Positions 30,879-33,634 of a stretch of DNA of 39,373 nt are shown in pieces. The notes under the pieces were generated by a model, which did not search any database, was not told the DNA's origin, and worked only from the letters and a program-made list of their open reading frames with translations. Location: IMG/VR virus record IMGVR_UViG_2534681996_000012; one strand, 5' to 3'. The DNA is from a virus. Lineage: Duplodnaviria > Heunggongvirae > Uroviricota > Caudoviricetes. The stretch's first letter is position 1; the number at the start of each line of letters is the position of its first letter. Both the position numbers and the translations under genes were made by a program.

Positions 30879-31223
30879 TCAGAACTCTTCGATGTTCCAG
30901 CCACCACCTGCTTTCTTTGGTTTAACCGTTACCCCGATGATTCGGAACGGATACTGATCTGCGGCGACTTTGGTTTTCACCCTGGCGTCGTCGGTCCAGA
31001 AACCTTTCACTTCGTGCAGTTCCATCTCGCCGGTGGCGAGCATCACAGCAAAATCGGGCGTATAGAACGTGTTGTCAGCTAACCGCAGCTTGATACCCTC
31101 AAATCGATACCAGGCTATTTCCCCTGCACGTTTACGCAGCTCAAGGTGCTGGCAATACGCAGATTCTGTTTTGTTCATCTGGCCTGTTTTGAGTCGACCA
31201 AGAGCCTGTATCTGTTTTCTCAT
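30879..31223 (-). CDS. Hypothetical protein, DUF1064-like
   Basis: 114 aa; YTPDF motif; RBS overlapped by operator-like palindrome. Confidence 0.4.
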   Translation of the reverse strand: MRKQIQALGRLKTGQMNKTESAYCQHLELRKRAGEIAWYRFEGIKLRLADNTFYTPDFAVMLATGEMELHEVKGFWTDDARVKTKVAADQYPFRIIGVTVKPKKAGGGWNIEEF

Positions 31224-31340: not shown

Positions 31341-32141
31341 TTACTTGATAAATCCTGCCGCCTTTCCTCGCCTGTATTCCTCCATCAGCCACTGCGCCGG
31401 TGTTATTCCCCCAAGGGTGGCGGCGTTAGGCATGCACCCGAAACTTCGCCCTGGTGGATGGTAAACGTCTCTCCCTGTGTCCGGAGGCGTACTCATGGGT
31501 TCTGGCTTTGCCTGTATGCTGATCACCGGATCGGGTATCTGCTGTCCGGAAGCCACCTTTTTCGCCCAATCATCGAGCAGCCTGCGCGCGTGTTTCTCAA
31601 CCTCTATCTCGCTAAGCTGGCGCTGATACATTGCACGGCGGGTATCACATACGACCCAGTACATAACCGGATGCCGCCACGGGAATCTTTCGGGACCACC
31701 AGGATATAAACTTTTTTCCTTGCTGTACCGGTGAAACTCCGTCATCACATCGTCAATGGTGACGCCAAGAACCATCTTGCTGTCTTTGCACCACTTGATG
31801 AATTGCCCTGGCGACGGCCAGAACGGAGAATCACTGGCGCGGGCGTGGCGCATACCAGCAGAAACCTGTTCACGGGTTCGGATCCCCCCTTCGGCAAACG
31901 CAGCAATCCACTGCTGTTTTGCAGCAACTTCCTGCTCTGGCGTCTTCAGGTTGGTTACCACTGCCGCCGGAAACAGTTGTTTCAACTGTTTGAAAAGGGC
32001 ATCAACAAGCCTCTCTGCTGACATGTTCACTACGTTGTCATTGTTGACGTACTGATGCTCATAACCTGACATGCGAGAAAGGGCTTCTCCGTCACGGTTT
32101 TGTATTGCGGTAAAAACGTTGTTCACAAGAAATCCTCCCAT
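31341..32141 (-). CDS. Replication protein, lambda P-like (helicase loader)
   Basis: QWIAAFAEGGIRTREQVSAGMRHARASDSPFWPSPGQFIKWC parallels lambda P QWVLAFRENGITTMEQVNAGMRVARRQNRPFLPSPGQFVAWC; start may be GTG 32126. Confidence 0.75.
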   Translation of the reverse strand: MGGFLVNNVFTAIQNRDGEALSRMSGYEHQYVNNDNVVNMSAERLVDALFKQLKQLFPAAVVTNLKTPEQEVAAKQQWIAAFAEGGIRTREQVSAGMRHARASDSPFWPSPGQFIKWCKDSKMVLGVTIDDVMTEFHRYSKEKSLYPGGPERFPWRHPVMYWVVCDTRRAMYQRQLSEIEVEKHARRLLDDWAKKVASGQQIPDPVISIQAKPEPMSTPPDTGRDVYHPPGRSFGCMPNAATLGGITPAQWLMEEYRRGKAAGFIK

Positions 32142-32938
32142 GCTTCAGGGCTGTTCCAGTGCGGAACGTTGTTATCAGGTAATGTTGATTGCTTCTGTCT
32201 GCTAATCTGCAGCCGCCTTGCCAGCTTCTGCTCCCACTGCGCCTGATGGTATGCCTTACCCTCAGCCATCCAGTAAATTCTGAACTCTGCAAGTTCCTGT
32301 GCCGTTGGCAGACTGTCCAGGTAGATCCCCTGCAATGAGCTTTTCCGAAGAAAGTCATCTGATGGTTGCCATTGTTCATGCATGACAAATTTGCCTAATT
32401 GCCCTGGCCCACCAGGAGGAACAAAGTTATTCATCACGGCGTTGTTTGCGCCGGGGTCATGAGGCACAGAATCCCCGGTTTTTGTCCTGCTCTCCCTCTC
32501 TTGGTTAAATGACTGGTTATATGACTGGTTCTGGATCCCGTTTTTGGGATCATTCAACATCCCGTTTTTGGGATCATTCAACATCCCGTTTTTGGGTATA
32601 TTCCCGTTTTCGGTAACATTACCGTTTTCGGGTTCATTGCCCCCCTCCCGGTTGCCTTTAATGTTCCCGTTTTTGGTTATATTAAGAGAGAAAACCCGCA
32701 CTCTTTTTGTCGCTCCCTTTCTCTCTCCGGTATCTGAAATAAGCCCCATTTTCATGAGCGATATAAGCCCGGCCTGCACGGTTTTTTTATTCAGGCAAGT
32801 GTCTTTAACGAGGCGTTCTATGCTGGGGTAGCAGAGGTTATATTCATCGGCTCTGTCAGCCATCGAGAGCAGTATGAGCTTTAATGATGAGCTACCTGGA
32901 TCTGTCTCCCAGGCCCAATCTGTTGCATGTCTGCTCAT
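32123..32938 (-). CDS. Replication initiator, lambda O-like, with internal origin iterons
   Basis: GGAG RBS; N-terminal HTH-like region; Asn/Gly/Pro-rich repeats encoded by DNA iterons; directly upstream of P-like gene. Confidence 0.7.
   Translation of the reverse strand: MSRHATDWAWETDPGSSSLKLILLSMADRADEYNLCYPSIERLVKDTCLNKKTVQAGLISLMKMGLISDTGERKGATKRVRVFSLNITKNGNIKGNREGGNEPENGNVTENGNIPKNGMLNDPKNGMLNDPKNGIQNQSYNQSFNQERESRTKTGDSVPHDPGANNAVMNNFVPPGGPGQLGKFVMHEQWQPSDDFLRKSSLQGIYLDSLPTAQELAEFRIYWMAEGKAYHQAQWEQKLARRLQISRQKQSTLPDNNVPHWNSPEAWEDFL
32537..32676. repeat. Origin-like iterons (six copies of CCCGTTTT(T)(C)GG) inside the O-like gene
   Basis: Two perfect 24-bp tandem copies CCCGTTTTTGGGATCATTCAACAT at 32537 and 32561, then shorter copies at 32585, 32603, 32622, 32666. 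Confidence 0.7.
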
Positions 32939-32953
32939 GATTAATCTCCGCTA

Positions 32954-33154
32954 TCAGCTTGAATGTTGTGGGGAGGAATTAATCATGATCTGCTTAATCT
33001 CAGCCCTGATGCGACGGTTTGATTCCATGGTGCACTCAACACAGTGTCCGTTGTAAACCCAACGTTCACTGTCATGTCCGTGCTTACATGGTTTTCCGGT
33101 GTAGTAGCGTTTAAGTCCGCGCTTTGCGGCATCAATACGTGTAATGATTTCCAT
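32954..33154 (-). CDS. Small Cys/His-rich protein (zinc-ribbon-like), start uncertain
   Basis: GKPCKHGH...HCVEC motif; candidate ATGs at 33154 and 33190; track start 33217 would include a terminator hairpin. Confidence 0.35.
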   Translation of the reverse strand: MEIITRIDAAKRGLKRYYTGKPCKHGHDSERWVYNGHCVECTMESNRRIRAEIKQIMINSSPQHSS

Positions 33155-33203
33155 GGTAAGCCCTGTTATTAGCATTGGGATTACGGTCATTTTGTGCTGA
33201 CAC

Positions 33204-33234
33204 AAAAAAAAGATCAACCAGATTTGGTTTTTTA
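33204..33234. terminator. Terminator-like hairpin with T/A tracts on both sides, downstream of the Cro-like gene
   Basis: AACCA-GATT-TGGTT flanked by A8 upstream and T5 downstream; operator variant TTACC-TTTGA-GGTGC follows at 33235-33249. Confidence 0.5.
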
Positions 33235-33304
33235 TTACCTTTGAGGTGCGAATAGATATGAAAAGACCGCCGGGTGGCGGTCTACAGAGGGTTGTGGCTG
33301 GATA

Positions 33305-33535: not shown

Positions 33536-33571
33536 AGCTATTGCCTGATATTTATTTCAGATAATAAATAT

Positions 33572-33634
33572 TCACCCATAAGGTAACAAAAATCAAGGAT
33601 AGTTACCTATGGGGTGCATTTACCTGTTGGGTAA
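33572..33634. promoter_or_regulatory. Immunity-region operator cluster (three TTACC-N5-GGTAA-type sites) with divergent promoters
   Basis: TCACC-CATAA-GGTAA 33572-33586, TTACC-TATGG-GGTGC 33603-33617, TTACC-TGTTG-GGTAA 33620-33634; plus AT-rich inverted repeat TATTTAT-N8-ATAAATA at 33549-33570. Confidence 0.6.

Follow-up and report, generated by a model that had tools for sequence, protein, structure and literature searches.

In phage lambda the replication origin lies in the middle of gene O and combines four iterons with an AT-rich region (PMC7466680). The Stx phages, such as 933W and P27, have six-iteron origins in O; their extra, distal iterons bind O weakly, yet influence replication (PMC7466680). 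Repeats have been reported for gene 18 of P22 and predicted for gene 18 of phage L (PMC7466680, PMC8022706). The locus described here is an array of short repeats within the initiator gene of a phiV10-like phage. Judging from sequence comparison, these repeats are very probably the initiator-binding iterons of a replication origin, and we consider the segment 32498-32677 likely to be the vegetative replication origin of the phage, embedded in its own initiator gene. The arrangement is an ordinary lambda-type one, new only as an unannotated case for the phiV10 phage group.

The window, meaning the whole stretch of DNA analysed, comprises 39,373 bases and represents a phiV10-like Uetakevirus, i.e. 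an epsilon15-like temperate podovirus, with E. coli as its host. Its initiator gene is 97-99.5% identical, across the gene, to those of phages EC.W1-9, phiv142-3, PAS61 and phiV10, and of 5426 complete E. coli genomes, 423 (about 8%) contain a matching prophage copy. The phiV10 record carries no origin annotation, and a literature search on phiV10, epsilon15 and other Uetakevirus found no paper on an origin or on iterons.

Features of the region are collected in Table 1. Gene order is that of the lambda early-right region: a divergent repressor gene, a promoter-like site, a cro-like gene, a terminator, a small ORF, the initiator gene and a P-like loader gene. The loader matches Pfam model PF06992 (1.7e-56) and phrog_109, "P-like helicase loader" (1.5e-91), and is 31% identical to lambda P (E 6e-36). 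The tR1-like terminator separates the cro-like gene from the replication genes, and phiV10 has a terminator annotated at the same position. The pR-like promoter is a weak consensus match only, the number of such hits in the region being no greater than expected by chance; transcription from this candidate would run through the cro-like gene, an 87-aa ORF, the initiator gene and the loader gene, and the repeats would be transcribed through. The 87-aa ORF (32954-33217, minus strand), located between the terminator and the initiator gene, holds the position of lambda cII; it matches nothing in Pfam or NCBIfam, and its sole hit is phrog_1081, function unknown. Downstream of the loader gene, a DUF1064 protein (30879-31223, minus strand) matches the C-terminal part of phrog_190 (7e-43), annotated as Holliday junction resolvase. 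A GC-skew minimum at 32-34 kb was rejected as independent evidence for an origin because it coincides with the switch in gene orientation. Searches for DnaA boxes with at most one mismatch gave none within the candidate origin and, between 31.3 and 33.7 kb, a sole hit at 32119.

Table 1. Features of the replication region, numbered from the first base of the window.
Feature	Coordinates	Strand	Description
lambda-P-family helicase loader gene	31341..32141	-	overlaps end of initiator gene
initiator gene	32123..32938	-	271-aa ORF; 816 nt
doubtful seventh iteron-like site	32472..32487	-	GACAAAAACCGGGGAT
three 12-bp periodic units	32498..32533	-	AGAACCAGTCAT, ATAACCAGTCAT, TTAACCAAGAGA; immediately promoter-distal of last iteron
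iteron I6	32535..32550	-	ATCCCAAAAACGGGAT; 5-bp inverted arms around A5 tract; closest to 12-mers
iteron I5	32559..32574	-	ATCCCAAAAACGGGAT; part of perfect 24-bp tandem unit
iteron I4	32583..32598	-	TACCCAAAAACGGGAT
iteron I3 core	32603..32614	-	ACCGAAAACGGG; 18-bp unit
iteron I2 core	32621..32632	-	CCCGAAAACGGT; 18-bp unit; plus strand ACCGTTTTCGGG, the mismatched copy
I1-I2 spacer	32633..32665	-	exceeds the rest of the gene in variability among close relatives
iteron I1 core	32666..32677	-	ACCAAAAACGGG; outlier, 45 bp from I2
tR1-like intrinsic terminator	33264..33283	-	8-pair stem, then T run
candidate pR-like promoter	33561..33589	-	TTGTTA-17-TATTAT, 9/12 consensus matches

The pattern CCCGTTTTYGG, with up to one mismatch allowed, has exactly six matches in the window. 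They start at 32537, 32561, 32585, 32603, 32621 (ACCG..., one mismatch) and 32666, forming a cluster at 32537-32676, and no other copy occurs elsewhere in the 39 kb. By chance 1.04 matches are expected (shuffle mean), and none of 100 shuffles reaches six. The first-pass annotation had already counted six copies at this place, one of which proves to be the mismatched one, and had described perfect 24-bp tandem units. Tandem Repeats Finder returns the latter as a 24-bp unit in 2.6 copies at 100% identity (32535-32596), along with an 18-bp unit in 3.1 copies (32584-32638); distances from start to start are 24, 24, 18, 18 and 45. The repeats do lie inside the initiator coding sequence. That annotation wrote them on the antisense strand; their consensus on the gene strand is (A/C)CC(A/G)AAAACGG(G/T). 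The full 24-bp units carry a dyad-symmetric 16-mer, ATCCCAAAAACGGGAT on the gene strand, with ATCCC/GGGAT arms. The iterons span nucleotides 262-402 of the 816 in the gene, or residues 88-134, and encode (P/T)(K/E)NG. The translation, ...ITKNGN...EPENGNVTENGNIPKNGMLNDPKNGMLNDPKNGI..., reads ...TKNG...PENG..TENG..PKNGMLNDPKNGMLNDPKNG... across the repeats and agrees with the Asn/Gly/Pro-rich segment described at first pass.

Among close relatives the array changes in steps. Close E. coli relatives have five to eight iterons and differ by whole 18- or 24-bp units. The core of I6 is invariant in nine close relatives, and that of I3 varies only at positions 1 and 4, both degenerate in the consensus. 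The I1-I2 spacer may be a decayed iteron. The seventh site in Table 1 is probably not functional, since its centre base is C, A or G among close relatives and the site is missing altogether from one of them (L009). Whole phiV10-like genomes have also been deposited as circular E. coli "plasmids" (NZ_CP076267.1, pNADC1036guaAphage, 38,709 bp; NZ_CP079771.1, 41,027 bp), and the former has eight iterons, the most seen among relatives. A phiV10-like replication block, with repressor, cro-like gene, initiator with five iterons and P-like gene, appears near the end of the record for Escherichia phage BP9 (PP488543.1, a 138-kb Vequintavirus) at 133437-137228, where its presence probably reflects chimeric assembly or contamination by a prophage.

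The initiator matches Pfam model HTH_36 toward its N-terminus (residues 18-67, 1.8e-10), Pfam model DnaT toward its C-terminus (residues 184-252, 1.1e-15), and phrog_1032, "replication initiation protein" (1.2e-108). The segment encoded by the iterons falls between the two domains. An AlphaFold (AF2) model, built from an alignment of 116 homologues, shows residues 1-88 as a confident winged helix (pLDDT 94-98) and residues 89-190 without secondary structure (pLDDT 42-56); the repeat-encoded linker, residues ~89-180, is predicted to be disordered. A single-sequence AlphaFold model of the protein was uninformative (pLDDT 37.8), and a PDB fold search returned generic winged-helix hits only (E >= 1e-3). 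The HTH_36 domain contains the DTGERKG wing conserved in family alignments. Covariation analysis of recognition-helix residues against the central hexamer of the iterons brought out no clear relationship; arms and wing motif are simply both conserved.

The C-terminal domain, residues ~181-265, hits PDB chains of DnaT at E ~1e-20 to 1e-21 and corresponds to the ssDNA-binding three-helix domain at the C-terminus of E. coli DnaT (primosomal protein I). Similarity to DnaT is confined to that domain (residues 181-264), and the score to the DnaT equivalog model NF002770 from NCBIfam, 85 bits, falls short of the cut-off of 201 for a full-length match. Public phage records label homologues "primosomal protein I / DnaT"; the name primosomal protein I is misleading because only the C-terminal ~85 residues match DnaT. 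The family is large: a cut-off of E <= 1e-3 yields 3765 representatives (50% identity), and one of E <= 1e-10 yields 777. HTH_36 is found in all 116 sampled family members and the DnaT-like C-terminus in only 16 of the 116; the module of winged helix plus repeats is common to proteins with differing C-termini.

Calling the initiator "O-like", as was done at first pass, suits its role and perhaps, remotely, its fold. Membership in the lambda O family by sequence was rejected: the protein has no hit to Pfam model PF04492 (Phage_rep_O), which finds one of five relatives at E 0.039, and its comparison with lambda O gives a BLASTP E of 0.075 and an hhalign probability of 7%. The sole links, both remote, come from profiles and structure: the N-termini of the two proteins hit phrog_678 and phrog_345 at overlapping profile positions, and the Foldseek hits include one named "replication protein O [Min27]" (1.6e-8) and one named "lambda GpO N-terminal" (3.5e-7).

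Homologues of the N-terminal domain were gathered from phage records (GF-2, Vibrio H20, Acinetobacter AP22 and PPompW) and from 80 genome loci. The resulting 84 distinct relatives have hosts that include Vibrio, Pseudoalteromonas, Marinomonas, Acinetobacter, Providencia, Edwardsiella and other Enterobacterales, sampled unevenly by phylogeny, with half from Acinetobacter. In nearly all of these homologues, repeats of this kind lie right behind the domain. In the window and in most of the 84 relatives, CCC-N6-GG(G) repeats come first and CRGAAYCnnYCA 12-mers follow.

Such repeats could in principle be a low-complexity coding linker (PKNG) produced by slippage, with no role in cis for the DNA and with the origin elsewhere in the genome. 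Their units are multiples of 3 bp that expand and contract in frame, the PKNG peptide itself is conserved across the family, and a predicted disordered linker is a setting in which repeats drift freely. Codon choice argues otherwise. Of the 180 Pro codons in PxxG motifs of the linker, 159 (88%) are CCC, compared to 182 of 1068 (17%) elsewhere in the same genes, and across the 84 relatives the Gly codon of the motif is GGG in 45%, against 21% elsewhere. The CCC bias holds within the Enterobacterales (51/54 vs 46/238), within AT-rich Acinetobacter (62/68 vs 52/490), and separately in Vibrio, Pseudoalteromonas and Marinomonas. The middle residues of the motif vary (KN, EN, NN, NV, KI, NF, KF), yet the CCC-N6-GG(G) dyad is kept in the DNA and includes perfect palindromes (CCCAACGTTGGG, CCCAAATTTGGG). 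Diverged copies that are not in tandem also retain CCC and GG. Nine near-identical phages and prophages show 0 of 72 variable positions in I4-I6 plus the 12-mers, compared to 8 of 33 in the adjoining coding spacer between I1 and I2. A repeat that serves the protein alone is, on these figures, very unlikely. A DNA signal seems to carry the amino-acid repeat along as a passenger, because synonymous sites are constrained and middle residues vary, although the conservation of the PKNG peptide means that a role at the protein level is not fully separable from one at the DNA level. Nucleotide-level conservation across distant relatives is what is expected of initiator-binding sites, and supports reading the repeats as such.

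Uetakeviruses whose initiators have a different N-terminal domain behave as predicted for an origin specific to its module. SPN1S has repeats of its own, GTCCGCA/TGCGGAC, and the initiator gene of Tyrion has no obvious repeats; the case of Tyrion is at the same time a point against the origin reading. In Salmonella phage SPN1S the repeats form two clusters within the gene, at 783-853 and 1062-1102, and no P-like gene follows.

The 12-bp element beside the last iteron was missing from the first-pass annotation. Tandem Repeats Finder reports it as a 12-bp unit in 2.4 copies (32502-32530). Synonymous positions of the motif CRGAAYCnnYCA are invariant family-wide. The encoded peptides differ by lineage (QNQSYNQSFNQ, QNQSLEPVIEP, RNLSKNLSIESKNK), and at third-codon positions the Ser/Pro codon is always NCA and the Gln/Arg codon CAG/CGG. 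The 12-mers are invariant in the nine close relatives; phiV10 has one extra. Their region is modestly AT-rich (GC 39%, duplex instability at the 9th percentile). A scan of duplex stability found no strongly AT-rich, lambda-like tract adjoining the iterons; it placed the least stable stretch of the gene around I1, not at the 12-mers, which it did not single out as a DUE. The position of the element can be read from phage GF-2, whose initiator is a hybrid of a winged helix, iterons and 12-mers of the type in the window with the C-terminal half of lambda O (62% identity). The joint in the GF-2 DNA falls exactly at the end of the AT-rich region of lambda, at CGTCAGAGAATTCTGGCGAATCCTCTGA, and therefore the 12-mers occupy the position of the lambda unwinding region. 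We regard them as a candidate unwinding or helicase-entry element. The hybrid gene of this Edwardsiella phage spans 1501-2343 and carries CCCAAAATTGGG iterons, its joint lying inside the origin just past the 12-mers.

An array that adjoins no strongly AT-rich unwinding tract might consist of true initiator-binding sites with a regulatory task, such as autoregulating the replication operon, or titrating or handcuffing the initiator, while opening and helicase loading take place elsewhere. Further in its favor, I1 lies apart from the others and is mutated to ACCAAAAAAGGG in one E. coli relative (L090). Individual iterons can indeed be accessory, as the weakly bound distal iterons of Stx phages affect replication nonetheless (PMC7466680). 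The 39 kb hold no further iteron copy, however, and the initiator would therefore be left without a second binding site at which to open DNA. The conserved 12-mers sit exactly where lambda has its unwinding region, and the arrangement as a whole parallels origins proven by experiment. A purely regulatory array thus strikes us as improbable.

Instead of serving as initiator sites, the dyads might act by way of hairpins in mRNA or ssDNA, as terminators, or through a cluster of GATC sites for Dam/SeqA. Terminator-like hits do occur on the plus strand at 32545-32564 and 32569-32588, and the three GATC sites within 42 bp are the densest cluster in the window. The hits are antisense to the gene, however, and consist merely of an iteron arm and a T-tract. 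Folded as a single strand, 32490-32690 does no better than shuffled sequence (z of -1.64; 15 of 200 shuffles fold equally well). GATC is missing from Vibrio and Acinetobacter iterons that retain the CCC-N6-GG dyad. We give this explanation next to no credence. The GATC sites themselves, at 32534, 32548 and 32572, are made by the ATCCC/GGGAT arms; no 60-bp stretch in the 39 kb has more, the mean being one per 262 bp, and the cluster is not conserved in the Vibrio and Acinetobacter relatives. A 95-aa ORF on the plus strand (32544-32831) and the terminator-like hits at 32545-32588 are antisense by-products of iteron dyads and T-tracts.

For an origin inside the initiator gene, the reading we prefer, we infer initiator binding, unwinding at the 12-mers and loading of DnaB as follows. 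Dimers of the N-terminal winged helix would bind the dyad-symmetric iterons. The nucleoprotein complex would then destabilise the adjacent 12-bp element, aided by the A-tracts at the centre of the iterons and by transcription that starts at the early rightward-type promoter. The DnaT-like ssDNA-binding domain at the C-terminus, together with the lambda-P-like loader, would load host DnaB onto the opened DNA. The Asn/Gly/Pro/Lys-rich peptide repeat would be mainly a by-product of constraint on the DNA, tolerated because it lies within a disordered linker.

A broader proposal, which we put forward tentatively and hold to be somewhat less probable than its negation, is that the winged helix, the CCC-N6-GGG iterons and three copies of CRGAAYCnnYCA constitute a mobile "origin-specificity cassette" in which the 12-mers are a sequence-specific opening element. 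If so, the cassette would be common to hundreds of initiator lineages in phages and prophages of Gammaproteobacteria, recombining with varied helicase-recruiting C-termini (DnaT-like, lambda-O-like and others). In place of a generic AT-rich DUE, the cassette would use the 12-mers for unwinding or helicase entry, a kind of element not described before, and DNA signals, once translated, would account for the conserved "PKNG...QNQS" peptide.

The immediate result is a concrete candidate origin for phages of the phiV10/Uetakevirus type, including O157 reporter and typing phages, with uses in the engineering of phagemids and reporter phages and in correcting "primosomal protein I" annotations. It is also a clean case in which a DNA signal, and not protein function, appears to have shaped a repeat in a protein, and it provides, in the conserved 12-bp element, a possible site for sequence-specific origin opening. 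Understanding of lambda-type origins is unchanged by the finding.

The first-pass annotation had described the locus as the lambda arrangement and suggested comparison with the lambda origin. The mid-gene cluster, the P-family gene downstream and the nucleotide-level conservation support that description in substance; it needs qualifying as to the protein family of the initiator and the strongly AT-rich tract. In both loci, direct repeats that measure ~18-24 bp, are internally dyad-symmetric and have an A-tract at the centre are placed mid-gene in the linker behind the DNA-binding domain of the initiator. Both have a second element promoter-distal to the repeats and, directly downstream, the gene for a P-family loader, and in both the genes belong to an early operon preceded by the repressor and cro-like genes. 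Iteron number differs among relatives, as it does in lambda and the Stx phages. The iteron sequences are themselves alike (TCCC...AAAAC...GGGA): those of lambda are dyads of ~19 bp, ATCCCTCAAAACGAGGGA and variants, compared to ATCCCAAAAACGGGAT here. Differences lie in the iteron arms, 6 bp apart here and 9 bp in lambda; in the units, which here are exact multiples of 3 bp (18, 24); in the second element, a 12-bp periodic repeat of 39% GC instead of a strongly AT-rich tract of ~40 bp; and in the C-terminal domain of the initiator, DnaT-like here in place of the P-interacting C-domain of lambda O.

P22 and L follow the same logic: their divergent initiator is encoded by a gene that itself contains a distinct family of repeats (PMC8022706). 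Their repeat sequences differ from those described here (TGTCCAACGGA in L), and their initiator is paired with a DnaB-type helicase (gene 12), whereas a loader of the lambda P type is found here. The nearest counterparts are the HTH_36-type initiators of GF-2 (Edwardsiella), H20 (Vibrio) and AP22/AB1 (Acinetobacter), from phrog_1032, phrog_6643 and phrog_391, in records that carry no origin annotation. Their C-terminal domains and partner genes are not alike: a lambda-O C-domain together with P in GF-2, a DnaB-like helicase in AP22 and, as annotated, neither in H20. With the initiator described here they share homologous N-terminal domains at 40-56% identity, CCC-N6-GG iterons in 24-bp units and, downstream of these, 12-mers of the CAGAAYCAGTCA type.
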